In this document: positions 12,203 to 61,190 of the stretch, piece by piece
How positions within the stretch are numbered: position 1 is the stretch's first letter
How the letters are laid out: every line of letters starts with the position of its first letter
Assembly: GCA_018175075.1 (NCBI GenBank)
Contig: GCA_018175075.1_4100.1
Direction: 5' to 3' (one strand)
From: a phage
DNA: 64,000 bases
Translations under genes and position numbers: made by a program
Notes under the pieces: generated by a model
Told to the model about the DNA's origin: nothing
The model's input: only the letters and a program-made list of their open reading frames with translations
Database searches by the model: none

Positions 12203-12541
12203 ATGGAACAATATTTTGAATTAATAAACAAAGTATCATTTTATGTAGTATCTTTGGTTTGGGTGTATTATATGTTTTGCTATATTATTGCATTCTTCCG
12301 ATATACTACTTTATATGAACGTATCTACTATGATGCCCCAATTTCATTCTTGATGTTTTGTGCATGTACGTGGGGAATATTAGAAGTACTGATATGTGGG
12401 TATAGTACTGATGAATTAAATCTGGTATCGGTGTTGACTGGGTTTTCATTTGTTGTTATGATAGCTGCCGTTCCAGTATGGTTGTTCTTTGGACTAGTTC
12501 ATCGCATTGATATATGGCGTTCTAATATCCCTGAAAAGTAA
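12203..12541 (+). CDS. small membrane protein, family A paralog
   Basis: hydrophobic; C-terminal R.N.PE(K/R) tail shared with next two genes. Confidence 0.55.
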   Translation: MEQYFELINKVSFYVVSLVWVYYMFCYIIAFFRYTTLYERIYYDAPISFLMFCACTWGILEVLICGYSTDELNLVSVLTGFSFVVMIAAVPVWLFFGLVHRIDIWRSNIPEK

Positions 12542-12544
12542 GGA

Positions 12545-12892
12545 TTGGAAATGATTTATTACACTAACATGTTTGCCTATGCTGTTGCTTGCATTTACAT
12601 TGTTTACTTCTTATTCGGTGGAGTACTGTGCTTCTTTAAGTACAAAACGTTGTTCAACCGAATGTACCCAAATCATCCAATTGTAGTTGTACTTTTGATT
12701 CTTTCAGTTTCTCAAATAATCGTTGAAACTACAATGGGTATCAGTAGTGTACATTATAGTTTTGGCACTATAGTAATTATTACTATGCTTATTGCATACA
12801 TTTTAGTACTTGGATATGGTATCTTTGGTAATATTGGTATGAAAATGTATCATCGAATTAAAACATTACGTGATAATCTACCGGAGCGTTGA
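12545..12892 (+). CDS. small membrane protein, family A paralog
   Basis: paralog of 12203 gene. Confidence 0.55.
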   Translation: MEMIYYTNMFAYAVACIYIVYFLFGGVLCFFKYKTLFNRMYPNHPIVVVLLILSVSQIIVETTMGISSVHYSFGTIVIITMLIAYILVLGYGIFGNIGMKMYHRIKTLRDNLPER

Positions 12893-16971: not shown

Positions 16972-17310
16972 ATGCTTGAGTTTTTTAATTCAGATACAAT
17001 GATTAGTATTACTTTGATTTATCTGTTTGGTTTTTTCTTTTATCATGCACTGGTTGTAGTACTGTGGTATTTTAAAAAGAAAATTGTTTTTAAACTGTAT
17101 CCAGTAAGGAATTCATCACTAGTTCTTTACACACTAGTTCAAGGTTTGTTTGCAATTGTTGGTCTTATGGCACACTTAATTTATTGTGCCAATCCTCACT
17201 TGAACTCAATCTCACAATATATTGTATTCTTTGGGTTGTTCATTTGGTTAGTTGTATACTTAATCCATCTCATTATTCATGGTAGAGATAAAATTCGCGG
17301 AGACTTCTAA
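16972..17310 (+). CDS. small membrane protein, family B paralog
   Basis: first of seven coupled hydrophobic ORFs with basic C-termini. Confidence 0.5.
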   Translation: MLEFFNSDTMISITLIYLFGFFFYHALVVVLWYFKKKIVFKLYPVRNSSLVLYTLVQGLFAIVGLMAHLIYCANPHLNSISQYIVFFGLFIWLVVYLIHLIIHGRDKIRGDF

Positions 17311-17657
17311 TGTTTGAAGCTTATCTTGAGTTTTTAAGGAGTAGTTCAGTTGCACATTCACTTGCAGGGATTATTCTAACAACTTATGTATCATTTTGGG
17401 TAGTTATGTTTCTAGGATGGTATTTTAAACGACAATTCTATAAACGTAATGGTGAAGATTTTATGAATTCTGCCATTAATCAATCGTTGTTTGCATCAAC
17501 ATTGATTGCATGTATTGTAGCAACACTCACAGGAAAGGTACTACCAGCTTTTTCCGCAGTTTACGGCACACTTGGGATGATATGTTTAACTTTTATATTG
17601 ACCATTAAAATTTGTTGTGTTATGATTGAACTTCGAAATAAGATACCGGAGGAATGA
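17310..17657 (+). CDS. small membrane protein, family B paralog
   Basis: start overlaps upstream stop. Confidence 0.5.
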   Translation: MFEAYLEFLRSSSVAHSLAGIILTTYVSFWVVMFLGWYFKRQFYKRNGEDFMNSAINQSLFASTLIACIVATLTGKVLPAFSAVYGTLGMICLTFILTIKICCVMIELRNKIPEE

Positions 17658-17992
17658 TGGAGTACTTTATTGATTTACTGCCGTGGTATATGAAAGTTAG
17701 TACCATGTACTATATTATTAGTGCTGGATTCTACTTTCTGATGTGGTTCTTTAAACGACCAATTTCAGTATTCATCGCTGATAACATGCTGCAATTAAAA
17801 TTACACGCATGGTTTGGTATGGCGATGATTATGCCTATTATTCACTACTCAATGATTAGTAGAGGTTTCCGTTCTAATGGTGAACCAATTGTATTAGTAT
17901 TCTATTGGGGTTCAACTATTGCATATGTAAGTTTGTTGTTGTTCCCAGTCGTTCATAAGTTACGTGCTAAAGTTCCTGATGCGAGGTACTAA
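17654..17992 (+). CDS. small membrane protein, family B paralog
   Basis: ATGA overlap. Confidence 0.5.
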   Translation: MMEYFIDLLPWYMKVSTMYYIISAGFYFLMWFFKRPISVFIADNMLQLKLHAWFGMAMIMPIIHYSMISRGFRSNGEPIVLVFYWGSTIAYVSLLLFPVVHKLRAKVPDARY

Positions 17993-18306
17993 TGGATATA
18001 GTAACATTGATTTACACGTTGTATTCATTCTATTTCATTATGTGTTGGGTTGGATTTTTATTTGTACTCAAGATGTTTGATTATGTTGAAAAACAGATAA
18101 AAGAATTTTGTATTCCTTTTATCGGTTCAACCATTATTAGTGTTTCTTGTGTGTATTTTTTGGTTTTTGATCCACCAGATAACACTGCAATGATTGACTT
18201 GATGTTACTACCAACAACTGTTACTTTTTTATGTAGTCTGATGCCGCCGATTAGCCGTGGACTAACAGAATTTAGACGCAATCAAAAGCGTAAACGAGGG
18301 ATGTAA
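17992..18306 (+). CDS. small membrane protein, family B paralog
   Basis: start overlaps upstream stop. Confidence 0.5.
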   Translation: MDIVTLIYTLYSFYFIMCWVGFLFVLKMFDYVEKQIKEFCIPFIGSTIISVSCVYFLVFDPPDNTAMIDLMLLPTTVTFLCSLMPPISRGLTEFRRNQKRKRGM

Positions 18307-28210: not shown

Positions 28211-29401
28211 TTACAATTGTCTAGGTGTATCCAGTACATATCTATTTGTACGAGGACCACCATCATCATGCGTTCCGGTTGAATATATATTTTTCATATC
28301 AGCAGTTAGGAAAGTACGATACGAACCGCGATATATTTTAATTTTATCATACATAGAATATGTTATTCCTGACGGCAATGGACATGCAGTAAATTTACCA
28401 ATGGTAACATTAGAACCAACACCTAATGTACCAGCATAACCACTCGCATTTAAACCAGTTGCATATACACCTGTACTCGTAACTAGTATACTAGATTGTG
28501 ATGCATATCCAGTATGGATTGAATAATAAGTTCCTGATGGTAATGTAGTACTATTATTCCCTAATACTGCTAGTGCTGTACTATTCGTAGTGTTATTACC
28601 CCATGCCCCATTATTAGCTAATCCACCAACTAGAAACTGACGTGCTCCTGTATTTGGATTCTCCACTAAAGCACTGACAGCACCAAATGAACAAACAGTA
28701 TATTGTAATGTTTTTGTATATGTGGTACTTGGCTTATACAAAGTATATTCATTAAATGGTGTCCATGTGGTACTAGTACTTATGCCAGATGTACTACCAC
28801 CAATATATAAATTATTTTGTGTATCAAAAAACATTGCACAGTAATTTGTTGACTGTATTTGTGCAATATCTACATCTGGTGTTACCGCTTTAACAAATGA
28901 ACCATCTGATATTTGATAAGTAGTTCCTGTACCATCTGCGAATTGTCTAGCACTATTCCACCCTGTACTCCATATTGTATTATTATCCATTAAGAAAGTA
29001 AACCACGTAGTACCTGCATACATCTGTTTAATTGAAGTACTTGAACTTTGTGTGTACAAATTTTCAATATATTGGTTATAACTTAAAAATGATGTAGTAC
29101 TAGTTTCTAAACCAATATGACTACCATATCCACAATAAAAATAATTTAAGTCATTATCTTGTACTAACAAAGTTCCTTGTGTCATCCAGCAATCTTTGAC
29201 ATTTTCTCTAATTAATGTCCACGACCTTACTGCATTATTATTTCCTCTACCAAACTTCCCATAACTATTACTGCCTCGTGCGTATAGTTGACCGTCGGTA
29301 TAAAGTACAACAACCTCAGTATCAGTTGGTATTATTTTCTTAATTTGTAGTGGTACAGGCACAATATTCCCATAATTCATCATTCTTGCAAAAGGTAACA
29401 T
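28211..29401 (-). CDS. RCC1-like repeat protein paralog H, 396 aa
   Basis: MLPFARMMNYGNI; repeats SNSYGKFGRG, GYAGTLGVG. Confidence 0.7.
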   Translation of the reverse strand: MLPFARMMNYGNIVPVPLQIKKIIPTDTEVVVLYTDGQLYARGSNSYGKFGRGNNNAVRSWTLIRENVKDCWMTQGTLLVQDNDLNYFYCGYGSHIGLETSTTSFLSYNQYIENLYTQSSSTSIKQMYAGTTWFTFLMDNNTIWSTGWNSARQFADGTGTTYQISDGSFVKAVTPDVDIAQIQSTNYCAMFFDTQNNLYIGGSTSGISTSTTWTPFNEYTLYKPSTTYTKTLQYTVCSFGAVSALVENPNTGARQFLVGGLANNGAWGNNTTNSTALAVLGNNSTTLPSGTYYSIHTGYASQSSILVTSTGVYATGLNASGYAGTLGVGSNVTIGKFTACPLPSGITYSMYDKIKIYRGSYRTFLTADMKNIYSTGTHDDGGPRTNRYVLDTPRQL

Positions 29402-29472
29402 AATTCCCCTCCTTATTCATTATACTATATTTAATACAAATAAGAAAGCCAGTATCAAGTACTGGCCTATAT
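29402..29472 (-). promoter_or_regulatory. late-type cassette: terminator hairpin, TATAAT, GGAGG RBS
   Basis: GCCAGTA-TCAA-GTACTGGC hairpin plus TATAAT/RBS. Confidence 0.55.
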
Positions 29473-30642
29473 TTAAACTGGCGAATCTAATATAAATTCT
29501 AAACTACTAATGCCACCATATGTGACATCTGTTCCCGTGCTATATACAAAATTACCATCAGTTATATAAGTTCGGTTATAACTACCTGCCATCTGTGACT
29601 TACTATAATCAAACCCATCAGGTACGATTGCTTTGGTATATACTAATGCATTAGTAGATGTACCAATACCTAACATACCAGCTTGTGTAGATTGATTGTA
29701 GCCGCAACAATATATACCATCTGTTGTAGCAATAACTTGGTTATAATATGAAGTATTGTTAGCAATGCTTACTACATCACCAGGTGGCATTAGTGATGCT
29801 GTTTGTACCTCAAATGCTCTATAATCTTTGAGAGAACCATCTTTCCCATCTGCTTGTGCACCAAATATTCTTGAACCACCATTTGCGATGATAGTTTTAC
29901 CAGTGGGATCAGTGCCTATTGCCATTGCCATTGAAGTACCATTATTCACATAGTACTTTATATTAATTGTATTACTTAAGCTGGTAGGAGCACCATAATA
30001 TATATTATATAACTTACTTCCTGAACTTGTAACTGCATTGACTCTTCCTGTATAAAATAACCATCCTTGGTTTGTAACATAACCGTGCATTAAATTACTT
30101 GCAAACAATTTAACAGGTAATTGATTTGCTGCGGTAGGAACAGTACTTTTGACGAATCTACCAGAAACATGGTTAATTGTTGTCCCATCACCCAACTGAC
30201 CATCCGACCCTACTCCAGTACTCCATATTGTTTGGTCTGATAGTAACACACTTGTAGTCTGATAACTAACGGCTATATCTAATATTGGTAATGTTAATGT
30301 ATTGAATATAGGCATAGCAGATGTCCATATTGATACTCCTGACCCTTTCATACCAACAGTTGTTGAACTTCCACTGTACCATATTTCATTATTGCTTTTC
30401 TTAACAACTATCGACGTGGCACCCATCCAAAAATCTTCAACACCAGAAGTACTAAAAGTCCATGTAGTAACAGTATTTTTGTGACCTAAACCCAAAATAC
30501 CATATGCATTATCACCACGCACATATAAATCACCACTGTTTGTTAAAACAGCAACATTATAGTTGTTAGCAAGTATTTTTTTAATATTTGGTTTATCAGG
30601 TGCAATATTCCCGTACTTAAACATCCTCGCAAAAGGTAACAT
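29473..30642 (-). CDS. RCC1-like repeat protein paralog I, 389 aa
   Basis: MLPFARMFKYGNIAP; repeats DNAYGILGLG, SDGQLGDG, TQAGMLGIG. Confidence 0.7.
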   Translation of the reverse strand: MLPFARMFKYGNIAPDKPNIKKILANNYNVAVLTNSGDLYVRGDNAYGILGLGHKNTVTTWTFSTSGVEDFWMGATSIVVKKSNNEIWYSGSSTTVGMKGSGVSIWTSAMPIFNTLTLPILDIAVSYQTTSVLLSDQTIWSTGVGSDGQLGDGTTINHVSGRFVKSTVPTAANQLPVKLFASNLMHGYVTNQGWLFYTGRVNAVTSSGSKLYNIYYGAPTSLSNTINIKYYVNNGTSMAMAIGTDPTGKTIIANGGSRIFGAQADGKDGSLKDYRAFEVQTASLMPPGDVVSIANNTSYYNQVIATTDGIYCCGYNQSTQAGMLGIGTSTNALVYTKAIVPDGFDYSKSQMAGSYNRTYITDGNFVYSTGTDVTYGGISSLEFILDSPV

Positions 30643-30711
30643 ATTTCCTCCTTATTCATTATACTATATTTAATACAAATAAGAATGCCAGTATCAAGTA
30701 CTGGCATTATG
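30643..30711 (-). promoter_or_regulatory. late-type cassette: terminator hairpin, TATAAT, GGAGG RBS
   Basis: GCCAGTATCAAGTACTGGC hairpin plus TATAAT/RBS. Confidence 0.55.
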
Positions 30712-31821
30712 TTATTTTGGTAAATCAATTTTAGTAAAGACTGCAACATCTGCACTTGCACCTGGAATGGCGTAATACGATCCAGTACTATATACATTCC
30801 CGTCTTTGGTTAATAATGATGTTAATCCGTCACTAAAAGCAACATCACTAATCTCACTAACTTCTACAGGTAATTGTAAATTAGCAGCACTATAGATAGC
30901 ACCCGTTTGAGAATTGTTTAATCCCAAACCACGGTTTCCCCCAATACCTTTCTGATATGCACTAGTTAATATAATTTGCGTAGCCGTGCTTGTTGCCTCT
31001 GAATTTGTCATAAACAAAGGTGAATTATTAGGTAAAGTACTTACAGGAACTGCTTTGAATGTAGTTGAATCTGAACTAAGAAAGTTTGGAGTTGTACCAC
31101 ATGTGAAATATGATGTACCATTATAGTAATTGAGTGTATGTCCACCAATAGCTGCATCTATTACACCAGAACTACGCAGTCCCCAAATGTTAACTTGTGT
31201 TCTGTTCCCTGTGCCATGTAATCCACGGTCATTCCACCCTGAACTATATAACTTATTATCTATGCTAATATACATACTATCATTAGGAGTAGACATAACT
31301 TTACGCACATTAGAAGCACATAGTGTTAATGTATATATTGATGAAGAACCAATCCCCAATACACCACGGTATCCATTAGCCCCAGCACCATAGAGTACTG
31401 AACTTGAACTTAGTACAAATATTACACCACTATTGCATACAATATTAGCAATTTGATTCACTGGTATTGTATTTGTAAACCACTCGGTTCTATCAACTAA
31501 TGTAGTACTGTAAGAAGTAGTTGTAGAAGATGTGAACCAGTACGTTTGACCTGATGTCCATATCGTATTATCATTTTTAATAATAACAAGTGTTCGTCCT
31601 CCAGTGAAAAAATTAGAAACATCTGCACTTACTAATATCCATGAAGATACCGTGTTGGTATTACCATTTCCAGATTCACCACCTTGATTTCTGCCTATGT
31701 AATACAATTCATGTGAATCAGTCAATACGAATTGACCTTGAGTAGAAGCACCAACTTTAATTATATTTTTAGGACCAGAGGTAATATTCCCATAATCAAA
31801 TAGTCTTACAAAAGGTAACAT
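30712..31821 (-). CDS. RCC1-like repeat protein paralog J, 369 aa
   Basis: start at MLPFVRLFDYGNI; RBS overlaps stop of K (TAGGAGGGAATATG). Confidence 0.65.
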   Translation of the reverse strand: MLPFVRLFDYGNITSGPKNIIKVGASTQGQFVLTDSHELYYIGRNQGGESGNGNTNTVSSWILVSADVSNFFTGGRTLVIIKNDNTIWTSGQTYWFTSSTTTSYSTTLVDRTEWFTNTIPVNQIANIVCNSGVIFVLSSSSVLYGAGANGYRGVLGIGSSSIYTLTLCASNVRKVMSTPNDSMYISIDNKLYSSGWNDRGLHGTGNRTQVNIWGLRSSGVIDAAIGGHTLNYYNGTSYFTCGTTPNFLSSDSTTFKAVPVSTLPNNSPLFMTNSEATSTATQIILTSAYQKGIGGNRGLGLNNSQTGAIYSAANLQLPVEVSEISDVAFSDGLTSLLTKDGNVYSTGSYYAIPGASADVAVFTKIDLPK

Positions 31822-31829
31822 ATTCCCTC

Positions 31830-33032
31830 CTATTGTTGCCATAACTGCGTTGGCATTAATGTTAGTGTAGTAATACTATAAGTGCCATCAGGCAATCTAC
31901 CACCATTACCATTCCAGCCACCACATGCATATAATTTATAATCTTTAGTAATTATTATGGTTCTGCTCCAATCTTTAGATGCCATAAGAACATTGTCATA
32001 ACCACCACTTATTGCACTAAGATTAAAAATAGCCCAAGTCTTAACTAATGTATTAGTTCCATTACCTTCTTGACCATATGAGTTAGGACCACTACTTCTA
32101 ACATATGGTGCGTATTGTGCCATAGGTGAACCAATTGATGCATTTCCCATATTACTTGGACAAATAAAATTACTGTACTTACTTACATCAACCGTGACCG
32201 ATGTATTCCTAATTGGTGTTAGCTGATTTACTGATGTAGTCGTACCATTACCAGCTTGTCCAGTATTGTTAGACCCACTATAATATACAGGCCCACCAGT
32301 AGTAAACCACCAAGTAACATTGTATGTAGTACTAATATGTTCTACATTACTAATCACGAATTTGTTCAAATATACAACAGAACTACCACCACATCCACTT
32401 TCACCAAAGTTATCCTTACCACAAAACCATGCATCTTTATTTGATTTAATATAGTGCGTTCCTTGTAATGAACATGCCATATCTATAACTTCACCCATAT
32501 TAGTCATAACTGTTAGTGTAGGGATTGAATTTTGATTACCCGACCCACATTCACCATTAGTATTTTTTCCACACGCAATTACTCTACCATCTGTTAATAA
32601 TATTCTAGTACTTTCACCTATATATACACTCTTGATCATATTAGCCATTACGCCAATTTTATTAAATGAAGCAGTAACATCAGTCCATGTTCTCAAATAA
32701 CCACTAACAGGTGTTGCATCTCCATAATCAGAAAATGCACCCACCGACCCAGTGTAGTATATTTTATTATCCAAATCAACCATCAATGAACCATGAACAC
32801 CCAGCCAATAGGCTGCACAGTTACGTGCAAGTACAGTAAATGACGGAACTGCTGCTGAATTCCCAAGACCAAATTGAGACATGTTATTACTACCATAACC
32901 ATATAAAGTATTAGTTGGGCTATGTAGATACATACAGTTTGTATAATGTTGTTGTAAAACATCTGAGAACTCTATAGGTTCTGGCCCTGGTGCAATATTA
33001 CCGTACTTAACCATTCTAGCAAAAGGTAACAT
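31830..33032 (-). CDS. RCC1-like repeat protein paralog K, 400 aa
   Basis: MLPFARMVKYGNIAP; repeats NNMSQFGLG, SYGQEGNG. Confidence 0.7.
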   Translation of the reverse strand: MLPFARMVKYGNIAPGPEPIEFSDVLQQHYTNCMYLHSPTNTLYGYGSNNMSQFGLGNSAAVPSFTVLARNCAAYWLGVHGSLMVDLDNKIYYTGSVGAFSDYGDATPVSGYLRTWTDVTASFNKIGVMANMIKSVYIGESTRILLTDGRVIACGKNTNGECGSGNQNSIPTLTVMTNMGEVIDMACSLQGTHYIKSNKDAWFCGKDNFGESGCGGSSVVYLNKFVISNVEHISTTYNVTWWFTTGGPVYYSGSNNTGQAGNGTTTSVNQLTPIRNTSVTVDVSKYSNFICPSNMGNASIGSPMAQYAPYVRSSGPNSYGQEGNGTNTLVKTWAIFNLSAISGGYDNVLMASKDWSRTIIITKDYKLYACGGWNGNGGRLPDGTYSITTLTLMPTQLWQQ

Positions 33033-33104
33033 ATTTCCCTCCTTTATTCATTATATTATATTTAATCAAAAATAAAAGCCAGTACTTGAGTACTGGCATA
33101 TCAA
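33033..33104 (-). promoter_or_regulatory. late-type cassette: terminator hairpin, TATAAT, GGAGG RBS
   Basis: perfect palindrome GCCAGTACT-TGA-AGTACTGGC plus TATAAT/RBS. Confidence 0.55.
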
Positions 33105-34271
33105 TTACGAAAAACGTGGATCATCAAGAACAAACACGGTACTACTTGGACCACCTTGTGTGGTGACAGCACTAGTACTGTAAAGAAAGTTACCATCTGT
33201 CATATAAGTTCTACGATTCGTACAAATAACTCTTACTTTATTCATATCGATATCAGGATTAGGTAATGGACATGAAGTATACACTGATACATCAGTACTT
33301 GTTCCTATTCCCAGCGTACCTTCATTTGTGGTTGAACCGCTATTCAACCCACTAGCATATATACCACTGCTTGTAATAACAAAAGTGGCGTAGAATGGAG
33401 AACCTTCACCTATATTTAATTTAGTTCCAGGTGGTTGTCTTGCCGCAGCAACCGCACCATATGCTTTCCCACCAGATGTGGCAAGATTACCAAGAGCACC
33501 ATACTGTTGTTGTCCACCATTATACACTGTGTTAGTGCCATCACTGTTAGTGTGGATACCAATAGAATTATAGTTACTGTTGCTATATACTAAAGCGGCA
33601 TTAGAAGTAACTGTATTTCGTGTATATACTTTATATTGTTGGGTAAAATTACCACTAGTGGACGTACCCTGTACAGTTCCAGTGTAGTATATATATCCGT
33701 CTGTACCAATGAATGAGTGCATAACACTACCTGCAAAAATTTTTTCTGGAGTAACACCTGACGGTATTGTTGATTGTACAAATCTACCCACTACATTTGT
33801 TGTTGTATTATTTCCCAATTGACCGGAGTCACCATAACCACTTGACCATATGGTATTGTTCTCAAGAAGAACACTAATTGATAATCTTGATAAAGCTATT
33901 TCTTTAACATCACTTTCTAATGTATCAAAAAATGAAGTACAATTTGTCCAAGTGTTCACTACGCTAGAACTAACACCAATTTGTTTATTATCACCAGAAC
34001 TATAATAATTCCCATCATATGTTTGTATAAGTATAACAGAACCACCAACCCATACTTTATCAACTGAACCAAACGTTCTTGTCCATGTGGTAACTATATC
34101 CCCGCTATTATTACCCAATCCAAAGCAACCACTACTATCTACGCCTCGTACATATAAATCTCCTGAAGTCATCAGAACTGCACAGAATGATTGTGCACCT
34201 TTAACATCTTTAATTGGCTCTGGTTCAGGTGCAACATTTCCATAATCAAACATTCTAACAAAAGGTAACAT
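33105..34271 (-). CDS. RCC1-like repeat protein paralog L, 388 aa
   Basis: start at MLPFVRMFDYGNV; repeats DSGQLGNN, NEGTLGIG; first gene of the cluster. Confidence 0.7.
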   Translation of the reverse strand: MLPFVRMFDYGNVAPEPEPIKDVKGAQSFCAVLMTSGDLYVRGVDSSGCFGLGNNSGDIVTTWTRTFGSVDKVWVGGSVILIQTYDGNYYSSGDNKQIGVSSSVVNTWTNCTSFFDTLESDVKEIALSRLSISVLLENNTIWSSGYGDSGQLGNNTTTNVVGRFVQSTIPSGVTPEKIFAGSVMHSFIGTDGYIYYTGTVQGTSTSGNFTQQYKVYTRNTVTSNAALVYSNSNYNSIGIHTNSDGTNTVYNGGQQQYGALGNLATSGGKAYGAVAAARQPPGTKLNIGEGSPFYATFVITSSGIYASGLNSGSTTNEGTLGIGTSTDVSVYTSCPLPNPDIDMNKVRVICTNRRTYMTDGNFLYSTSAVTTQGGPSSTVFVLDDPRFS

Positions 34272-34373
34272 ATTTCCTCCTTTATTCATTATATCATATT
34301 TACCCCATAAACAAAACCCTTGACAACCTTCCAGTACTGGTGTACTATAGAAGGAATATAAGGAGAACTACAC
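34272..34373. promoter_or_regulatory. divergent promoter region
   Basis: plus strand TTGACA (34320), 17 nt, TACTAT; minus strand TATAAT plus AGGAGG for paralog L. Confidence 0.5.
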
Positions 34374-34601
34374 ATGACAAATACTCTTAAGTACTACATT
34401 AATACTCTAAATGAACTAGAGTACGCGAAGTTTCTCGCGGATAGTTCGTGGCTAATTGAGCTAAAAAATTATAATAGTCCAGGATGCACCCTTATGATGA
34501 ACAATGCAATTGATACCCTCATTGTGAGTATTTTACACAGCAACATCTGCGGGGATAGAAACAAACAATTATCAAAAATCTTAGTACTGCTATCTATATG
34601 A
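34374..34601 (+). CDS. tandem family 1 small protein
   Basis: AAGGAG RBS; YYINTL N-terminal motif, hydrophobic C-terminus. Confidence 0.5.
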   Translation: MTNTLKYYINTLNELEYAKFLADSSWLIELKNYNSPGCTLMMNNAIDTLIVSILHSNICGDRNKQLSKILVLLSI

Positions 34602-34801
34602 ATATCGAACAGTACTACATCGATGCACTACCAACAAAAGGTCTACGTGAAAGCCTACTGCATACACAAACTAATTTCAAACACCTCAAACGTAGCCCTA
34701 AACTCCTGAACTCGTACAGGAATAATAACATAAGAAATGCTTTACAAGGGGTAGAATGTATGCAATACTATTACATCCTTACCCTATTAATCGAGTACTA
34801 A
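34598..34801 (+). CDS. tandem family 1 small protein
   Basis: ATGA overlap; family motifs. Confidence 0.5.
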   Translation: MNIEQYYIDALPTKGLRESLLHTQTNFKHLKRSPKLLNSYRNNNIRNALQGVECMQYYYILTLLIEY

Positions 34802-34802
34802 T

Positions 34803-35012
34803 ATGAATACTGAACATAAAGAATTCTACACCAAATACCTTAGCAACGAAGAACAATTGTTTCTAAGGAGTGTATCACCTGTAAGTACCAATACTCAATT
34901 CGGTAGAGATTGCTTTAATAATTGTATACGTAGTACTCTAGAAGCAATCGAATGCAATAACAAAAATATTATGTACTCAGGTTTAATAGGACTAATATAT
35001 TTCTATGAATAA
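34803..35012 (+). CDS. tandem family 1 small protein
   Basis: near-duplicate of 38188 gene (MNTEHKEFY...). Confidence 0.55.
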   Translation: MNTEHKEFYTKYLSNEEQLFLRSVSPVSTNTQFGRDCFNNCIRSTLEAIECNNKNIMYSGLIGLIYFYE

Positions 35013-35199
35013 TCATAAAGATTTCTATTGTAGTAAACTACCCAAACAAGAACAGCTATCATTCTCTTTAGCACCACCTATGAGAAAGGATAATCTGTAT
35101 TATAATTACGATTTCAGGATGGTGACACGTTATGCAATAGAACATCAGTTCCCTGAAACTAAGTACCGCTCTATCCTGAACCTCATCTTTAAGTTCTAA
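35005..35199 (+). CDS. tandem family 1 small protein
   Basis: related to 38390 gene (MNNHKDFY...). Confidence 0.55.
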   Translation: MNNHKDFYCSKLPKQEQLSFSLAPPMRKDNLYYNYDFRMVTRYAIEHQFPETKYRSILNLIFKF

Positions 35200-35251
35200 A
35201 AGGTACACCAGGGACCGAGTACTTTAATATAGTAAGGCTAATTACATTATA

Positions 35252-35437
35252 ATGAATCATATAAGCTACTACTACCAACAACTATCCGACAGAGACAAGT
35301 ACAGTCACAACTCCCATGTGTGGTACTACAAACGCGGCAGTATAAGAGACAAACAACATTACTTCTGTATTTCTATTAAAGAAGCACTGACAACTAAGTA
35401 CACGTACCGAGCAGTACTTAAACTTATTGAAATGTAA
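35252..35437 (+). CDS. tandem family 1 small protein
   Basis: C-terminal YTYRAVLKLIEM motif. Confidence 0.5.
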   Translation: MNHISYYYQQLSDRDKYSHNSHVWYYKRGSIRDKQHYFCISIKEALTTKYTYRAVLKLIEM

Positions 35438-35447
35438 AGAGAATACT

Positions 35448-35630
35448 ATGAACATTGAATTGTACTTAAGTAAATTACAGCCTGGCGATAGATTCATCTA
35501 CAATAAGTTCGAATTCAACTACAAGAACGGGAGCAACAAATATCGTCGAGGATACCTATATACAAGCACAAGAGATGCACAAAACGAAAAGTACACATAC
35601 AGAGAAGTACTTAAACTAATCTCTATTTGA
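35448..35630 (+). CDS. tandem family 1 small protein
   Basis: start at internal ATG (MNIELY); C-terminal YTYREVLKLISI. Confidence 0.5.
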   Translation: MNIELYLSKLQPGDRFIYNKFEFNYKNGSNKYRRGYLYTSTRDAQNEKYTYREVLKLISI

Positions 35631-35638
35631 GGTAATAT

Positions 35639-35824
35639 ATGAATACATTTGAGTACTATACCAATAAACTATCTATGCCTGAAAGATCTCATCTCTATGT
35701 GTGGAGAAATGCGTATAAAAGCGGCAATAAACTTATACAAAGAAATTCCCTTACAGTGTGTACAAATTTAATTAAAGCAGAGTACCGCACATATATTGAA
35801 GTACTGAAACTAATCTCTATCTAA
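35639..35824 (+). CDS. tandem family 1 small protein
   Basis: MNTFEYY...EVLKLISI. Confidence 0.5.
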   Translation: MNTFEYYTNKLSMPERSHLYVWRNAYKSGNKLIQRNSLTVCTNLIKAEYRTYIEVLKLISI

Positions 35825-35832
35825 GGTACTCT

Positions 35833-36012
35833 ATGCAAGAATTCTATATCTATAAACTTCAGCACAAAGATAGATACAACTATAATAAATTCCAAAGGTA
35901 CTACACAGTCGGGAACAAAAGAGATAAAAAACGATACTTTCTATCATGTACAGTAGAAGCACAAAACGAAAAGTACACGTACAGAGAAGTACTGAAACTC
36001 ATCTCTATGTAA
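35833..36012 (+). CDS. tandem family 1 small protein, 59 aa
   Basis: MQEFYIYKL...YTYREVLKLISM; below track size cutoff. Confidence 0.45.
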   Translation: MQEFYIYKLQHKDRYNYNKFQRYYTVGNKRDKKRYFLSCTVEAQNEKYTYREVLKLISM

Positions 36013-36020
36013 GGAATAAT

Positions 36021-36200
36021 ATGCAAGAATACTATATAGAACACATAAGCATTAAAGACCGTTTCATGTACGACACCTTCGTGAAGTACTACAACCTGGC
36101 AACTAACAGTACTAAAAATATTAATCTCAATAGCTGCATTCATCACGCACTAACAAAAGATAATCCCTTCAGGGAAATCCTCGCACTAGCATCTGTATAA
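36021..36200 (+). CDS. tandem family 1 small protein, 59 aa
   Basis: MQEYYIEH with AAGGA RBS; track ORF 35946 has spurious upstream extension. Confidence 0.45.
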   Translation: MQEYYIEHISIKDRFMYDTFVKYYNLATNSTKNINLNSCIHHALTKDNPFREILALASV

Positions 36201-36210
36201 AGGAAACCAA

Positions 36211-36870
36211 ATGAAACTTAATGCACACAGCAAACAATACCTTAAGCACTTTAAGTACCTCAACAGTATTCAAGCAGAATCTTTTACACCAGCATATACG
36301 TATCACCCAAATGTACTAAAGAAACGAAATAAAAAGAAAAAATCCAGAAATGTTCTCGTATCTAAGAACCTCAAATCGTACTTGAAGAAAAATAATATAG
36401 CTCTTGCTTTTATTAATATCTATAATACTGATTTAAAAGTATTGAGTACTAATACCAGCACAAAAGCACTAAAGAATGCATCTATCTATATACACATGGA
36501 TAATATCCCGTGCACTATAATTCTATCTTTCGGGAATGTATACTTCTTCGGGAATTGTAATAGCACCCATGATATCAGTACTGCACAATTCCAAATCGGC
36601 GATATGTACTGCATGGGTTCAGAAAAAATACACGATAACATGCACTTCTTCCAAAAGCAACGTACTAACGAAACTGATACAGTACTGCAATTCCTCAAAG
36701 AACTAGAACACAAAGAATTATCCGAGGAAGAAGAATTCATGTACAGTACTGTAATCGATAATCCAGAACTCTATAAAAACGCGTACAAACTAACAAAACA
36801 TGTACAGGAACTTATCAGTACTGATAAGAAATTTCATCACCTCATTACGTATATTTCAAACTATGTATAA
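36211..36870 (+). CDS. hypothetical protein, 219 aa, embedded in tandem array
   Basis: AAGGAAA RBS; unrelated larger ORF. Confidence 0.5.
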   Translation: MKLNAHSKQYLKHFKYLNSIQAESFTPAYTYHPNVLKKRNKKKKSRNVLVSKNLKSYLKKNNIALAFINIYNTDLKVLSTNTSTKALKNASIYIHMDNIPCTIILSFGNVYFFGNCNSTHDISTAQFQIGDMYCMGSEKIHDNMHFFQKQRTNETDTVLQFLKELEHKELSEEEEFMYSTVIDNPELYKNAYKLTKHVQELISTDKKFHHLITYISNYV

Positions 36871-37045
36871 AGAATACTACAAAGATAAAATCCCAATGCA
36901 TCTACAACACCATATACCAAACGTTGCATTGGGTATCAAAGATCACGCAAAGATAATGTTCCAACAATGTACTAAGTACACGCTCATATACGATGATAAT
37001 CCATATATGCTGTACTACGTAGTAATGCTAACATTCAGGTACTAA
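36863..37045 (+). CDS. tandem family 1 small protein
   Basis: MYKEYYKDKIP...MLTFRY; start overlaps upstream stop. Confidence 0.5.
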   Translation: MYKEYYKDKIPMHLQHHIPNVALGIKDHAKIMFQQCTKYTLIYDDNPYMLYYVVMLTFRY

Positions 37046-37046
37046 T

Positions 37047-37226
37047 ATGAATACTTATAAAGAATTCTACCTCTCGTACCTTAATTCCGATATAGTAACA
37101 TCCAATACATTCAGTACTAAAATTATCTATAATGAATTAATGAAAGAATGTATTAAAGGTGCTATTAACCCTAAAGATACGTATGACTTGTACTATGCAG
37201 TACTAACCCTTGTTTTCACGAAATAA
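37047..37226 (+). CDS. tandem family 1 small protein, 59 aa
   Basis: MNTYKEFYLSYL...LTLVFTK; below track size cutoff. Confidence 0.45.
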   Translation: MNTYKEFYLSYLNSDIVTSNTFSTKIIYNELMKECIKGAINPKDTYDLYYAVLTLVFTK

Positions 37227-37234
37227 CACATAAT

Positions 37235-37426
37235 ATGAATAACCACAAAGAATACTACATAGAGAAACTCCCAATGTATCTCCAACACCTTGTACCAACA
37301 GAACCATTGGGTATAGAAAAAAACTACGAAAAAGACTACTTCATTCAGTGCACTAAATCCTCGATATATATTGAAGACTATAATCGAGTACTGTATCACA
37401 TCCTTTTACTAATATATAGGTACTAA
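37235..37426 (+). CDS. tandem family 1 small protein
   Basis: MNNHKEYYIEKLP...LLLIYRY. Confidence 0.55.
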   Translation: MNNHKEYYIEKLPMYLQHLVPTEPLGIEKNYEKDYFIQCTKSSIYIEDYNRVLYHILLLIYRY

Positions 37427-37427
37427 T

Positions 37428-37610
37428 ATGCACAAAGAATACTACACACAATTTCTCCCCAGCATTTTTGAACACTACGCCAGATACAAAGTCCCTATGG
37501 ATAACGATTTGGCAGTACTGGGATTCAATAACTGCATAGAACGAAGTATAGAAAATAGTAGTAGTTATGACCAGCTATATAACACTATCCTACTTATATT
37601 CAGGTACTAA
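37428..37610 (+). CDS. tandem family 1 small protein
   Basis: MHKEYYTQFLP...LLIFRY. Confidence 0.55.
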   Translation: MHKEYYTQFLPSIFEHYARYKVPMDNDLAVLGFNNCIERSIENSSSYDQLYNTILLIFRY

Positions 37611-37611
37611 T

Positions 37612-37800
37612 ATGCATAAAGAATACTACACAAAATATTTCCCAATGTACCTCAGTACTAATCTATTAGATAAACCTCGCGGTATCAATGCACAAAACGA
37701 TAAAGTGTATTTTACTATGTGTACTAAAGCATGTATACTAGATTTTGACAGCTACCATCGAGTACTGTATCATACCCTGTACCTAGCTTTCGTATTCTAA
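37612..37800 (+). CDS. tandem family 1 small protein
   Basis: start at MHKEYYTKYF right after upstream stop. Confidence 0.5.
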   Translation: MHKEYYTKYFPMYLSTNLLDKPRGINAQNDKVYFTMCTKACILDFDSYHRVLYHTLYLAFVF

Positions 37801-37809
37801 AAGAACAAT

Positions 37810-37995
37810 ATGCATAAAGAATTCTACTTAAGCCATCTCGATCTAAACTCCCAAATGCTTATACCACTAATCCCAATAGATATCAAGGATAAGAAAAATA
37901 CCGAACAATTCATTTACCATACACAGTGTGCGATCACCCCAAATTACATTCCATATGAATTGTACTACATTATCGCCCTAATATATAGGTACTAA
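37810..37995 (+). CDS. tandem family 1 small protein
   Basis: MHKEFYLSHL...ALIYRY. Confidence 0.55.
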   Translation: MHKEFYLSHLDLNSQMLIPLIPIDIKDKKNTEQFIYHTQCAITPNYIPYELYYIIALIYRY

Positions 37996-37996
37996 T

Positions 37997-38182
37997 ATGC
38001 ATAGAGAATACTACACACAATTTGTTAAAGGGAACTACAAACATGCCGTACCCAGAACCCCTTTAAATTCTCATGACCCAAGTACTATATTCTTGTTTAA
38101 TGACGCAATACGTACAGTACTCAATACTAAAGATGAAGATGTGCAGTACGTATTCTTACTATTACTTATATACAGACACTAA
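37997..38182 (+). CDS. tandem family 1 small protein
   Basis: MHREYYTQFV...LLLIYRH. Confidence 0.55.
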   Translation: MHREYYTQFVKGNYKHAVPRTPLNSHDPSTIFLFNDAIRTVLNTKDEDVQYVFLLLLIYRH

Positions 38183-38187
38183 CTAAT

Positions 38188-38397
38188 ATGAATAAAGAAC
38201 ATAAAGAATTCTACTCCAAATACATAAGCCCCTCAGAACAAATGTTTCTAAGAACTACTCCACCTTTAAGTACTAATACATTTTTCGGCAGAGTATGCTA
38301 CAATAATTGTATTCAAATGACTTTAAACGCAAACGAAGATGGTAACAGTACTAACCTGTACTCAGGTATCATAGGTATACTATTCCTGTATGAATAA
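38188..38397 (+). CDS. tandem family 1 small protein
   Basis: near-duplicate of 34803 gene. Confidence 0.55.
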   Translation: MNKEHKEFYSKYISPSEQMFLRTTPPLSTNTFFGRVCYNNCIQMTLNANEDGNSTNLYSGIIGILFLYE

Positions 38398-38581
38398 TTA
38401 CAAAGACTTCTATTTGAATACACTACCTACTGTACTTTCTCTAAGTGCTCAATGTAAAATCCCGCTGGATAATGCTTACGCCAGATATAGCTATTCCATA
38501 ACTGTTAATCGATGTATAGAGAATCATTGCAGTACTAACACTAGTACTATCATATTAATTAATAGAGAATACTATGTATAA
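38390..38581 (+). CDS. tandem family 1 small protein
   Basis: MNNYKDFYLNTLP; related to 35005 gene. Confidence 0.5.
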   Translation: MNNYKDFYLNTLPTVLSLSAQCKIPLDNAYARYSYSITVNRCIENHCSTNTSTIILINREYYV

Positions 38582-38765
38582 AAACTTCTATATAAGTAAA
38601 CTAAAAGAAAATGAACAAGTATGGATTAGATCTATAATTCCACTGGCATTTAATAGATATGCATTTAACAGATGTACCGAGATTGCTATAGACCCTTATA
38701 ATATTAAAGAGAATGTACAGTATAATCAGTACTACTATATCTTAATGCTTATATATAGAAAGTAA
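38574..38765 (+). CDS. tandem family 1 small protein
   Basis: MYKNFYISKL...LMLIYRK; last member. Confidence 0.5.
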   Translation: MYKNFYISKLKENEQVWIRSIIPLAFNRYAFNRCTEIAIDPYNIKENVQYNQYYYILMLIYRK

Positions 38766-39403
38766 TTAAACACATAGAGACAGGGGAAGCTCCTAGTGAA
38801 CAACCTTTATGTACAGGCGAATTGTTAAAATTCAGCCTGGACAAATGCGATCACTAGGATTCTCCCCAGGCTAAACCCCGTAATCATAGGTAGTCATAAG
38901 TAATCATATATAAACATTTATATGAGCACCGTAGAATCACAGAATGATTATATATGATTCAGTACTGATTAGTATAGACAAGATTGCTCAAGAATGCACG
39001 GAAATGTGTGTGAATGATTCAGTACTGATATCCCACTAAGTAGGCAGAGGAAGTCTGCCGTACTTTGTAGTTTCCAAGCTCCTTTTCCATTTTGCAAATT
39101 ACATCAAATGTAATCAAAAGTAATCACACAATGATTAGTACTGAATTATTACTTTCACCTTAATTACAATTACCCTTTTACCCTTCGGGGTAAAATTCCA
39201 TTACCCCTTGAGGCTCCAGCAAAAAGTTGGTTAGTACTCCATCCTAAATCTCGATCCTAAAAATTTTGGAGTACCTATGAAATAAAAGTTGGATCTTCGA
39301 AAGTTGAAATTTACGTTGGGACGTTTATGATTTGTGGGATATAATGATGTTTGTAGTCGGGTAGTTCTCAAGAATATCAGTACTGAATGATGAAAGAAAG
39401 CTA

Positions 39404-39431
39404 TTGACTTTATGATTCAGTACTGTATAAT
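39404..39431 (+). promoter_or_regulatory. sigma70-like promoter with no ORF downstream (possible ncRNA promoter)
   Basis: TTGACT, 16 nt, TATAAT then GTTTTACAT; followed by about 110 nt non-coding and a T-tract. Confidence 0.4.
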
Positions 39432-39756
39432 GTTTTACATAGAGAGATGAGTTGCCGCAAACAATTCATTCACTCTACTTCCTGTCGTGAGACAGTACAG
39501 AAAGATAGTTCCTCCTATGGGTGGTACATCTTTTAGAACCTCTTTTTTCGTAATATGAACAGTACTGATATTAACAGAATGGTGTCAGTACTGATTTTAA
39601 TTTAATGCATTATGCCACCAGCACAAGCTGGTGGATTCCCTCTAACAGTATTCAGTACTACATGATGGTCTTCATCCTCCTAGGGTAACATAGTGAGGGC
39701 TATGATGGCAGTACTGAATACTCCCTTTCAAAAGATAGATCTATGGTATAGTACTG

Positions 39757-39950
39757 ACGGATTTTGGGCGTAGTTACCCTGGATGGATTTTGGGCGTAGA
39801 TATGTCTAGCCCTCCAGAAGTCTGGAAGTAAAGATGGCTATCCATCTAGACGGCTAAACGGCTAGATTTCTGGATGGCTGGATGGCTAGACGTTTGGACG
39901 GCTAAACGGCTAGATGGTTACACGTCTGGAAGTATAGACGGCTAAATCAA
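39757..39950. repeat. iteron-like short repeat cluster
   Basis: GGATTTTGGGCGTAG twice; at least 7 copies of (A/G)ACGGCTA/GATGGCTA within about 110 bp; TCTGGAAG three times. Confidence 0.55.
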
Positions 39951-40127
39951 AATTTTATTTTGTTTTTTCCAATAGTTCCCCTACCGCGTGGGGATAGTTT
40001 CCCCGCAGTATCTGGTGTTAGATTTTTCTGAATCTGGAATCATTATCTTATAAACTGGGGGCAATGTCAACGGCCTGGACGGATATTTTTAAAAATTTTT
40101 TCAGTACTGAATTTTGGGCGTAACTAT

Positions 40128-40141
40128 GCACCCGGTGGGCT
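40128..40141 (-). repeat. AGCCCACCGGGTGC element, inverted copy
   Basis: GCACCCGGTGGGCT is the reverse complement of the intergenic element found in forward orientation at 49540, 53530, 59062. Confidence 0.45.
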
Positions 40142-40561
40142 GGAGTCTTTCTCGACTTGATGGAACTATTATACAGTACTGGAAAAATAAAGCAATACCC
40201 TGGATGAAAAAAGTTTTAATTAATTTGCTTGCCATCCTGGGCCGGACTATGGTACTATAATTCAGTACTGAGAAAGTGCGTTAACCTGCTAGGGTGCGGG
40301 AGTGTATCCTTTTTTTATATCTTGAATTTTGGGCGTAATTCCGCACCCTCTGGGGTTTCCGCTTTCTCGCGTCTATGTAGTAATTATACGCTTTTTCAGG
40401 ATCAAGTCAATACCTAAAAACAAATAATTGAAAATAATTTAACGCGTTTAAACGGCCCGTAACGCCCTGGAATGATTAGAATGGTGCAAATGTATAGCTT
40501 AGGTGTATTAATGCGTTAGAATGCGTCTGAGGCCGTTTTATGGGGTGTAGTAGTGATTTGG

Positions 40562-40653
40562 TTGATTCAGTACTGAATAATAGTACTCCTATATAGAAAG
40601 ATAGTTCCCCTGGATTGATTCAGTACTGAATAATAGTACTCCTATATAGAAAG
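40562..40653. repeat. 37 bp direct repeat, two copies
   Basis: GATTCAGTACTGAATAATAGTACTCCTATATAGAAAG at 40564-40600 and 40617-40653. Confidence 0.6.
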
Positions 40654-40685
40654 AAAACTATTTTAAAAGTACATGTAGAAAGTAC

Positions 40686-40745
40686 TTGCACCGTACTGAT
40701 AAAAGCGTATAATGTTTTACATCGAGAGCGGGAACACTTCCCGCT
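40686..40745 (+). promoter_or_regulatory. class-I early promoter plus leader hairpin
   Basis: TTGCAC, 16 nt, TATAAT, GTTTTACATC, then AGCGGGAA-CAC-TTCCCGCT. Confidence 0.6.
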
Positions 40746-60559: not shown

Positions 60560-60589
60560 ATGATTGATATTAATTTTAAGGGAGTCCCT

Positions 60590-60787
60590 ATGCGTATTTT
60601 AACTAAAGAACAGCACCACGAAAGACTTATCAATAACATGGCTATGATAATGTATAAGTCCCATGACCGTGGTATTGCCTATAAGCGTGAATTAATTATG
60701 GCACTATTCATTGGAACTAACTTTCAGGAAAGGTATGTCAACGATTGGATTTGGTATTTAATTGAAGATATAACGAGTAAACTATGA
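60590..60787 (+). CDS. tandem family 2 small protein
   Basis: AAGGGAG RBS; IGTNFQERY motif; first member. Confidence 0.55.
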   Translation: MRILTKEQHHERLINNMAMIMYKSHDRGIAYKRELIMALFIGTNFQERYVNDWIWYLIEDITSKL

Positions 60788-60984
60788 AAATGCGTATTTT
60801 AAATAAAGAAGAATATCAATCACTGTTACGTAAAAACTACGTAAAGATTTACAACACAGACACACATGTAGAACGAATGGAGTTATACCTTTTGATTACA
60901 TTGGGAACAAACTATCAGGGTAGATGGGTGTGGCAATATATGGATACATTGAAAAATAAAATATTGTCCACGAGGAAACAATGA
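60784..60984 (+). CDS. tandem family 2 small protein
   Basis: ATGA coupling; LGTNYQGRW motif. Confidence 0.55.
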   Translation: MKMRILNKEEYQSLLRKNYVKIYNTDTHVERMELYLLITLGTNYQGRWVWQYMDTLKNKILSTRKQ

Positions 60985-61190
60985 AAACTATAACACGAAC
61001 CCAATCATACGGTCTTATCTTGAAATACATGGACTTAATGGTGGATATCAGCAAAGACCTGCCTAAAACTGAAATTGAAGTTGCAAGAGCAGAGATCCGC
61101 ATGTTGGCTGTACTGAACACAAACCATCAGGAAGAGTATGTTCAAGATTGGATTCGATTTTTAATAGAAGATATTAAGAGTAAACTATGA
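60981..61190 (+). CDS. tandem family 2 small protein
   Basis: ATGA coupling; family motif. Confidence 0.55.
   Translation: MKTITRTQSYGLILKYMDLMVDISKDLPKTEIEVARAEIRMLAVLNTNHQEEYVQDWIRFLIEDIKSKL

Follow-up and report, generated by a model that had tools for sequence, protein, structure and literature searches.

Tandem expansions of paralogous genes have been reported in several jumbo phages. Hua et al. (2017) mention an array of >30 genes in 121Q and in phage G in one sentence that names no genes (PMC5646251), Iyer et al. (2021) describe ~35 zinc-ribbon copies in phage G (PMC7824862), and phAPEC6 has 11 RCC1-like genes (PMC7247149). The subject of this study is an array of 19 small open reading frames (ORFs) at positions 34374–38765 of a 64,000-nucleotide (nt) stretch of phage DNA (GenBank assembly GCA_018175075.1, contig GCA_018175075.1_4100.1), the whole of which is referred to as the window. 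The source lineage of the window is that of the Asteriusvirus jumbo coliphages (PBECO4/121Q/SP27 group), and the array is well supported as a lineage-specific tandem expansion in these phages. It represents the same phenomenon as the expansions in 121Q, phage G, and phAPEC6, namely head-to-tail paralogues in the accessory region of a genome of ~350 kb; expansions of this type have been seen in giant phages before, and the present family is a new and better defined example. Because 121Q has 14–16 copies of the small family, this is probably not the array of >30 genes noted by Hua et al. At the level of the proteins, the closest description is the public cluster phrog_11711 (reference member from PBECO4), which is the same family as the 12 array genes designated subfamily B below. 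It has no function, fold, or array description attached and omits subfamily A (genes 5–9), gene 2, and gene 1; the link between subfamilies A and B and that to gene 2 are added here. No paper describing the family, its fold, its promoter, or its variation was found.

Region 34000–39200 of the window matches 36 phage records at 80–99% nucleotide identity, all of them from Asteriusvirus jumbo phages of Escherichia or Salmonella (among these PBECO4, 121Q, SP27, and phAPEC6), the closest being those of SHEFM2K (97.1%) and SP27 (98.4%). Every relative examined has the same layout: a minus-strand array of RCC1-like genes, a divergent intergenic region of 84 nt, the plus-strand array of small genes, ~1.95 kb without ORFs, and further plus-strand genes.

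Organization of the Array and Membership of the Family

The block comprises the 19 small ORFs, which encode 59–75 amino acids (aa), and one unrelated ORF of 219 aa, with a maximum gap of 52 nt. Its components and the signals upstream of it are as follows.

34320–34348, plus strand: match to a sigma-70-type promoter (TTGACA at 34320–34325, 17-nt spacer, TACTAT at 34343–34348; 10 of 12 positions)
34360–34365, plus strand: Shine-Dalgarno sequence AAGGAG, 8 nt before the ATG of gene 1
34374–34601, plus strand: gene 1, 75 aa, first in the putative operon, family membership unproven
34598–34801, plus strand: gene 2, 67 aa, divergent member (branch C), ATGA overlap with gene 1
34803–35199, plus strand: genes 3 and 4, 69 and 64 aa, subfamily B, 8-nt overlap ATGAATAA, old duplicate of genes 17 and 18
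35252–35437, 35448–35630, 35639–35824, 35833–36012, and 36021–36200, plus strand: genes 5–9, subfamily A, VLKLISI-type tail
36211–36870, plus strand: 219-aa ORF, phrog_29152 (function unknown), between genes 9 and 10, 8-nt overlap with gene 10
36863–37045, 37047–37226, 37235–37426, and 37428–37610, plus strand: genes 10–13, subfamily B, LIYRY-type tail, phrog_11711
37612–37800, 37810–37995, and 37997–38182, plus strand: genes 14–16, subfamily B, LIYRY-type tail, phrog_11711
38188–38397, plus strand: gene 17, 69 aa, subfamily B, old duplicate of gene 3 (59% aa identity)
38390–38581, plus strand: gene 18, 63 aa, deletion hybrid
38574–38765, plus strand: gene 19, 63 aa, subfamily B, final gene of the block

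All 19 small ORFs lie on the plus strand exactly within the limits given in an earlier note on this DNA, which had been made from the sequence alone. Counted from the conserved ATG, genes 1–19 encode 75, 67, 69, 64, 61, 60, 61, 59, 59, 60, 59, 63, 60, 62, 61, 61, 69, 63, and 63 aa, so three of the products, and not five as that note had it, are shorter than 60 aa. A profile search of the whole window identified no additional family member elsewhere. The 219-aa ORF was considered as a member and rejected on the same search, in which it gave no profile match; it is a genus-restricted orphan (23 database clusters) with no Pfam domain and no relative in the PDB, and its 3′ half contains four copies of the palindrome CAGTACTG discussed below.

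Membership was examined by a leave-one-out procedure in which a profile built from the other 18 members was searched against all 988 six-frame segments of the window. Each of the 17 members in subfamilies A and B was the top-ranked segment, with E values of 1e-18 to 5e-5, as compared with 0.008–0.2 for the best unrelated segment. The values are 2.5e-11 to 3.6e-7 for subfamily A, 1.2e-18 for gene 3, 1e-9 for gene 4, 7.9e-18 to 2.9e-5 for genes 10–16, 9.8e-14 for gene 17, and 3e-12 for gene 19. Grouping by BLAST separates subfamily A (genes 5–9) and subfamily B (genes 3, 4, and 10–19) and leaves genes 1 and 2 as outliers. With deeper, independent profiles prepared from 136 non-redundant members in 14 genomes, subfamilies A and B can be aligned over their full length (hhalign probability 95.5%, P 1.4e-8, 53 columns). 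Gene 2 is marginal within the window (leave-one-out E 0.06), but the profile of its orthologues aligns with subfamily B over 58 columns (probability 88.5%, P 2.7e-6), and some genomes carry a second copy of this branch. Gene 1 ranked fifth with an E value of 0.56, and its alignment with either subfamily covers 12 columns at P ~0.01; its likeness to the family is limited to an N-terminal KYYxxL motif and an ILVLLSI tail. Among the 13 other genomes, nine have a gene 1 orthologue with 83–95% identity and A4 has one with 61%, and no match to it was found in Turkey5, JNE01, or EJP2.

Database searches are in agreement with this grouping. The profile phrog_11711 independently matches 12 of the 19 members, all of subfamily B, over positions 1–62 of its 62 positions (best E 6e-28), whereas genes 1, 2, and 5–9 do not match it, and subfamily A has no PHROG or Pfam match. 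Searches of the family against Pfam, NCBIfam, PADLOC, and PDB sequences gave matches at chance level only, including those of one member each to two PtuB models in PADLOC (E 0.003–0.006), and no PHROG that carries a functional category matched any array member. It is therefore well supported by sequence profiles that 18 of the 19 small ORFs form one superfamily in three branches. The earlier view of 19 paralogues thus holds far beyond chance for 17 of them and for gene 2 once its orthologues are added; gene 1 is unproven.

The block has the sequence characteristics of a translationally coupled polycistronic operon, as had been proposed. All of its genes are on the same strand, overlaps or gaps of no more than 10 nt are present at 18 of the 19 junctions, a conserved promoter match lies upstream, and the internal Shine-Dalgarno sequences are weak. 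Among the 19 junctions of the 20 genes, four are overlaps of 8 nt (ATGAATAA or ATGTATAA type), one is an overlap of 4 nt (ATGA), five have a gap of 1 nt, one of 5 nt, seven of 8–10 nt, and one of 52 nt; the abutting junctions, previously described as TAATG, actually read TAAtATG. The AAGGAG of gene 1 is the only strong ribosome-binding site of the block, and the internal genes have weak sites or none (six of the 20 block genes lack any Shine-Dalgarno-like motif), as expected for coupled translation. AAGGAG is retained in the 12 array-carrying genomes among 13 aligned, and EJP2 has AAAGG. In subfamily B, the terminal Arg-Tyr-stop (AGG TAC TAA) also provides an AGGT ribosome-binding motif for the next gene, which places the tail under a double constraint. 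The scan listed no terminator-like site between 34374 and 38765; the first one after the block, at 39040–39059, is weak.

Promoter activity of 34320–34348 is inferred from sequence conservation: 13 Asteriusvirus genomes, among them the divergent Turkey5, JNE01, and EJP2, all have TTGACA, and their −10 elements are almost invariant. The spacer holds one copy of CAGTACTG (34332–34339), and the same architecture is present at other promoter-like sites in the window. In T4-type programs, promoters with full −35 and −10 elements are early, whereas those that lack a −35 element are late. PA5oct, a related phage, depends on host RNA polymerase and has TTGAC/TATAATA promoters (PMC7318152). By analogy, transcription of the array would be early. 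No RNA-seq or ribosome profiling was found in the literature on Asteriusvirus.

Predicted Fold, Composition, and Selection

The structure of the gene 12 product was predicted by AlphaFold from a 27-sequence family alignment. The model is a compact arrangement of four helices (residues 3–9, 14–17, 30–45, and 49–62) with a mean predicted local distance difference test (pLDDT) score of 91.5 and a predicted template modeling score of 0.76, and the prediction is confident. The model of gene 1 (pLDDT 59) is too weak for fold comparison. Foldseek found no fold match in the PDB (E above 4), and a search of BFVD returned the family's own members only. Structural matching detected neither a helix-turn-helix nor any other DNA-binding fold; the weak matches that were obtained are all to pieces of α-solenoid or helical-repeat proteins.

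Across the 136 non-redundant members, the columns of lowest entropy (<1.5 bits) form a predicted hydrophobic and aromatic core that comprises Y/F7, Y8 (100%), L12, F36, C39, T/I40, L/I44, Y/L53, I/V56, L57, L59, and I60. The N-terminal H-K-E is also conserved, giving the motif HKE(Y/F)Y. In contrast, column entropy is ~3 bits or more at most positions of residues 13–35 and on the helix surfaces. The hydrophobic C-terminal tail described previously is present as a stretch of ~12 hydrophobic residues and corresponds to helix 4 of the packed bundle in the model; it is not a membrane anchor, and no transmembrane segment was identified in any member (the highest 19-residue Kyte-Doolittle mean is 1.18). 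The members are Tyr-, Asn-, Ile-, and Lys-rich and Gly-, Ala-, and Val-poor (Tyr 11.2%, Asn 8.5%, Gly 1.9%, Ala 3.2%). The isoelectric points (pI) of four of the five subfamily A members are basic (9.4–9.6), that of gene 9 is 6.8, and those of subfamily B range from 5.3 to 9.4. Together with the model, these features make it well supported that the members are soluble, tyrosine-rich proteins of ~60 aa with a shared compact four-helix fold that has no known relative.

As a result of this amino acid make-up, the coding composition is atypical. G occupies codon position 1 in 17% of the array codons as compared with 36% in the other plus-strand genes of the window, C occupies position 3 in 25% as compared with 18%, and the GC skew of the array is −0.17 on the coding strand, which is negative despite the plus-strand orientation of the genes. 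This is probably the reason why many GenBank records annotate few or none of the array genes; the earlier note had likewise found some members absent from the ORF list of the present DNA.

The ORFs and their starts are retained across 14 genomes, and the pooled ratio of nonsynonymous to synonymous substitution rates (dN/dS) between orthologues is 0.30 for 306 distinct pairs chosen by nucleotide identity (0.12–0.41 by identity band); the pairs are linked by phylogeny, yet the direction of the result is unambiguous. Values of ~0.3 indicate that the ORFs encode real proteins. The ratio is uniform along the sequence, at 0.28, 0.32, and 0.27 for the N-terminal, central, and C-terminal segments, respectively. 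The small proteins had been called diversifying, and in the sense of positive selection this is not seen. Paralogues have almost nothing in common at residues 13–35 and on the helix surfaces. Orthologues, in turn, preserve this variable part as well as they do the scaffold, suggesting that each paralogue has its own maintained specificity and is not engaged in a running arms race. The diversity of the array is that of old paralogue divergence together with gene gain, loss, and recombination.

Turnover of the Array Genes and the Surrounding DNA

A word-indexed search of 5.8 billion proteins identified 43 family clusters (90% identity). In an exhaustive search with a profile, 1.84 billion representatives yielded 31 clusters (50% identity), and every cluster sequence inspected resembles a member from an Asteriusvirus genome. 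Searches by tblastn with one subfamily B member and with one subfamily A member each returned 36 records, none of them outside the genus. By these sequence searches the family is confined to Asteriusvirus.

Within the genus, profile-supported members were counted in 14 genomes and number 12–21. Two members known from SP27 or SHEFM2K are missing from the window, and ELP-22 has extra copies. Members in Turkey5 and JNE01 are only 25–59% identical to any member in the window, whereas beyond the ORF-free stretch two JNE01 genes show 82 and 98% identity. The extreme case is EJP2, also an Asteriusvirus. Its promoter and flanks are still present, as is the ORF-free region downstream, at 78% identity over 2.4 kb, but it has no family member at the array locus and no match elsewhere; the sole ORF of the block left at this locus is a distant homologue of the 219-aa ORF (28.6% identity over 140 aa). 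The genus therefore includes a viable phage that manages without the array.

Several sequences record recombination between members. Two metagenomic sequences are chimeras, one (P0001) with the body of gene 12 and the tail of gene 14 and the other (P0003) with the N terminus of gene 10 and the C terminus of gene 12. In the window, gene 18 is intact as a family member over its 5′ five-sixths, and its C terminus is an out-of-frame read-through. Positions 38390–38550 correspond to SHEFM2K gene 18 at 97.5% identity and 38515–38598 to the end of the next SHEFM2K member at 92%, which places the crossover within a shared stretch of ~36 nt; the next member, present in SHEFM2K and other genomes, is deleted here. 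The intact form of gene 18 ends in ...NQYYNIILLIFRY, and because the crossover joined the copies out of frame, the conserved final helix has been lost.

The best conserved DNA between paralogues is the junction, which includes the end of one gene, the ribosome-binding site, and the next start (for example, 37409–37454 and 37978–38023 are 95.7% identical over 46 nt). Because the AGG TAC TAA tail doubles as the AGGT motif, the junctions are ready substrates for in-register unequal recombination. Most paralogue pairs in the window are 15–45% identical, and detection of tandem repeats at the DNA level gave nothing of gene length because the copies are too diverged. Genes 3 and 4 had been described as near duplicated in genes 17 and 18. 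They are duplicates, but old ones: the two segments share 74% nucleotide identity over 246 nt, genes 3 and 17 are 59% identical in aa, and genes 4 and 18 are 38% identical, the latter two having no detectable nucleotide similarity beyond ~35 nt. Segmental duplication is thus upheld as the mode of growth, with an ancient rather than a recent example. No near-identical copies that would indicate recent amplification are present in the window, where the closest pair is 59% identical in aa and 74% in nt. The tandem paralogues, the copy number of 12–21, the two metagenomic chimeras, and the hybrid gene 18 are features of a gene accordion, and from these sequence comparisons it is well supported that the array grows and shrinks by recombination between repeated gene junctions and that total loss is possible.

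Upstream of the array, positions 20097–34289 of the minus strand contain 12 tandem genes, most of them RCC1-like, that encode proteins of ~400 aa. Upstream of most RCC1-like genes is a hairpin, GCCAGTAC-N4-GTACTGGC, with a T-run; TAAATATAGTATAAT, which has no −35 element, comes next and is followed by AAAGGAGG. The copy that adjoins the array (33105–34289) has no orthologue above 51% identity in any phage record, and its true start is probably the second ATG (34271), after AAAGGAGG. Similar genes reach beyond the genus to Erwinia, Xanthomonas, and Cronobacter jumbo phages; counts of their places by tblastn are unreliable since the paralogues are too diverged.

The 8-nt palindrome CAGTACTG occurs 64 times in the window, in coding and non-coding DNA, as compared with 0.97 expected (a maximum of four in 100 shuffles). 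Its positions include 34332, 36576, 36680, 36744, 36816, and 38960–40628, and it is often located in the spacer immediately before the −10 element (TTGACA-N6-9-CAGTACTG-N0-3-TATAAT). It could be an operator or another protein-binding site. Twelve copies are in the stretch that follows the array (38766–40711), which over 1.95 kb has no ORF of ≥50 aa except one that is initiated by TTG. From 39246 onward this stretch is conserved with EJP2, the similarity extending into the downstream genes. Its repeats include a run of 8-nt iteron-like units, GGAYGGCT (39816–39943), TTCAGTACTGAA in at least eight copies and GATTTTGGGCGTA in four, and a 40-nt sequence repeated perfectly and in direct orientation at 40562 and 40615. 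The stretch has neither a tRNA nor an Rfam match; it looks like a regulatory hub or a replication origin. Searches of the whole window for non-coding RNA likewise gave no Rfam match and no tRNA.

Beyond the ORF-free stretch there is a long run of plus-strand genes, each with its own promoter cassette. The cassette TATAATGTTTTACAT, a −10 element with a conserved leader, has 26 plus-strand copies in 39426–59615, roughly one per gene, as compared with 2.7 expected in the whole window, and creates spurious ORF starts such as MFYIERGK; this cassette is absent from the interior of the small-gene array. A second tandem array at 60560–63791, which reaches the end of the window, has at least 15 head-to-tail genes of 52–90 aa with an (L/F)xGTN(Y/F)Q motif and ATGA-type overlaps. 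It was considered as a relative of the small-gene array and rejected (hhalign probability <1%); it is probably the >30-gene array of 121Q noted by Hua et al. (2017). A third array at 16972–19411 was also rejected, because the contiguous ORFs of similar size at this site have no BLAST similarity to each other. Two further pairs of small plus-strand paralogues were observed, 2931–3290 with 3682–4032 (22% identity, E 4.5e-5) and 12203–12541 with 12545–12892 (25% identity, E 1.4e-9).

Possible Roles and Comparison with Known Systems

The reading that we tentatively favor, with a probability of roughly 0.45, is that the array is an accessory, non-virion, and probably early operon of binding proteins that combine a scaffold with a variable segment and are aimed at host factors. 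In the mechanism envisaged, host RNA polymerase would start at the conserved TTGACA-17-TACTAT promoter and transcribe the block, probably at an early stage of infection, and ribosomes would enter at the strong site of gene 1 and reach the later genes by translational coupling. Each product would be a cytoplasmic binding module with the common scaffold and a copy-specific central segment, and each copy would bind, and probably inhibit, a different host protein or a variant of one, acting in host takeover or counter-defense; the repertoire of a phage would then tune which strains support its growth. Such a role is plausible and fits the promoter type, the absence of any array member from the list of phAPEC6 virion proteins detected by mass spectrometry (PMC7247149), the absence of the array from EJP2, and the rapid turnover of the genes.

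Several points weigh against this interpretation. The literature yields no expression, interaction, or phenotype data for any member, and neither sequence nor fold searches found similarity to a known anti-defense or takeover protein. Small proteins are easily missed by mass spectrometry of virions, which leaves their absence from the list with little weight. Promoter-like matches across the region are no more common than in shuffled sequences (28 as compared with 32.9), so the call of the array promoter depends on its conservation, and the early timing is taken from promoter type alone, by analogy with transcription in T4-like phages and PA5oct. The dN/dS values give no sign of an arms race within orthologues, and the loss of the array in EJP2 and the broken gene 18 suit a low individual importance of the genes no less than a host-specific usefulness.

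This last point is also the basis of an alternative in which the copies are nearly functionless duplicated filler, retained since an enlarged capsid that is filled by the headful mechanism can accommodate, or requires, extra DNA. Hua et al. (2017) propose tandem duplication as a route to the growth of jumbo genomes, with the idea of a ratchet (PMC5646251), and the missing array in EJP2, the variable copy number, and the broken copy in the window are as this would predict. However, dN/dS is ~0.3 and not ~1, the paralogues, although diverged to 15–30% identity, keep their ORFs, starts, core residues, and a confidently predicted fold, and the variable segment of each paralogue is conserved among its orthologues; we consider filler unlikely. 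The position of the array raises the question of whether the small proteins work together with the neighboring RCC1-like proteins, as assembly chaperones, adaptors, or regulators. Eight RCC1-like proteins were detected in phAPEC6 virions by mass spectrometry (PMC7247149). The two arrays are adjacent and divergently arranged about the 84-nt intergenic region in all 14 genomes, and both are expanded in the genus and hypervariable. Yet EJP2 has at least 15 tandem genes in its RCC1-like array and not a single member of the small family, the Erwinia, Xanthomonas, and Cronobacter jumbo phages carry RCC1-like genes without a match to the small family, and the two arrays use different promoter classes, all of which makes such a partnership quite unlikely.

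EJP2 bears similarly on the proposal that the proteins bind DNA or regulate the phage itself, for instance by reading the palindrome CAGTACTG, since it keeps the palindrome at 1.1–2.7 copies per kb without any family member. The abundance of this palindrome (64 copies against ~1 expected) in promoter spacers that include the array's own, the basic pI of most of subfamily A (four of five members, 9.4–9.6), and the suggestion that the small zinc-ribbon expansion of phage G encodes transcription factors or DNA-binding proteins (PMC7824862) speak for a regulatory role; the range of subfamily B from acidic to basic and the failure to detect a helix-turn-helix or other DNA-binding fold speak against it, and on balance it is very unlikely. 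The least probable of these readings is that the paralogues co-assemble as hetero-oligomers or solenoid-like stacks into a non-virion structure inside the infected cell. It would account for the weak structural matches, all of them to α-solenoid or helical-repeat pieces, and for the very high tyrosine and hydrophobic content, and coupled translation would supply the subunits in roughly matched amounts, but a variable copy number and complete loss in EJP2 are difficult to reconcile with a defined multi-subunit assembly.

If the array proteins are indeed host-directed binders, each phage would offer ~20 natural variants, and the genus well over 100 distinct sequences, on one tiny and confidently folded scaffold, with EJP2 as a natural null phage for comparison. 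The family would then be a convenient system for the widening of jumbo-phage host range and the evolution of phage gene arrays and a possible source of new inhibitors of Escherichia coli or Salmonella proteins. The profiles built here would in addition mend the annotation of the under-annotated GenBank records.

The array can be compared with two types of known systems. The early takeover genes in the plastic regions of T4-like phages and the host-takeover module of SPO1 consist of mostly unrelated genes, for several of which the timing and host targets are known. Like the array genes, they encode proteins of 50–100 aa, are tightly packed behind sigma-70-type promoters, and vary between related phages, and they are non-structural and individually dispensable, as the array genes probably are; the array differs in that it is one expanded family. 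The multigene families of large DNA viruses of eukaryotes, such as MGF110/360/505 of African swine fever virus and the amplified K3L of poxviruses, have demonstrated roles in host range or immune evasion. They share with the array tandem paralogues near a variable region, differences in copy number among close isolates, recombinant chimeras, and probably dispensability for basic replication. In contrast, the phage array has no sequence or fold relationship to them and no recent amplification, and its role is putative. It is conceivable, although at present a doubtful extension of the host-directed reading, that the array is the phage counterpart of these families, a library of variants on the new four-helix scaffold of ~60 residues, each of which would neutralize a different host defense or strain-variable host factor, and that recombination at the conserved gene junctions would reshuffle this library in register, so that its content would set the host range.

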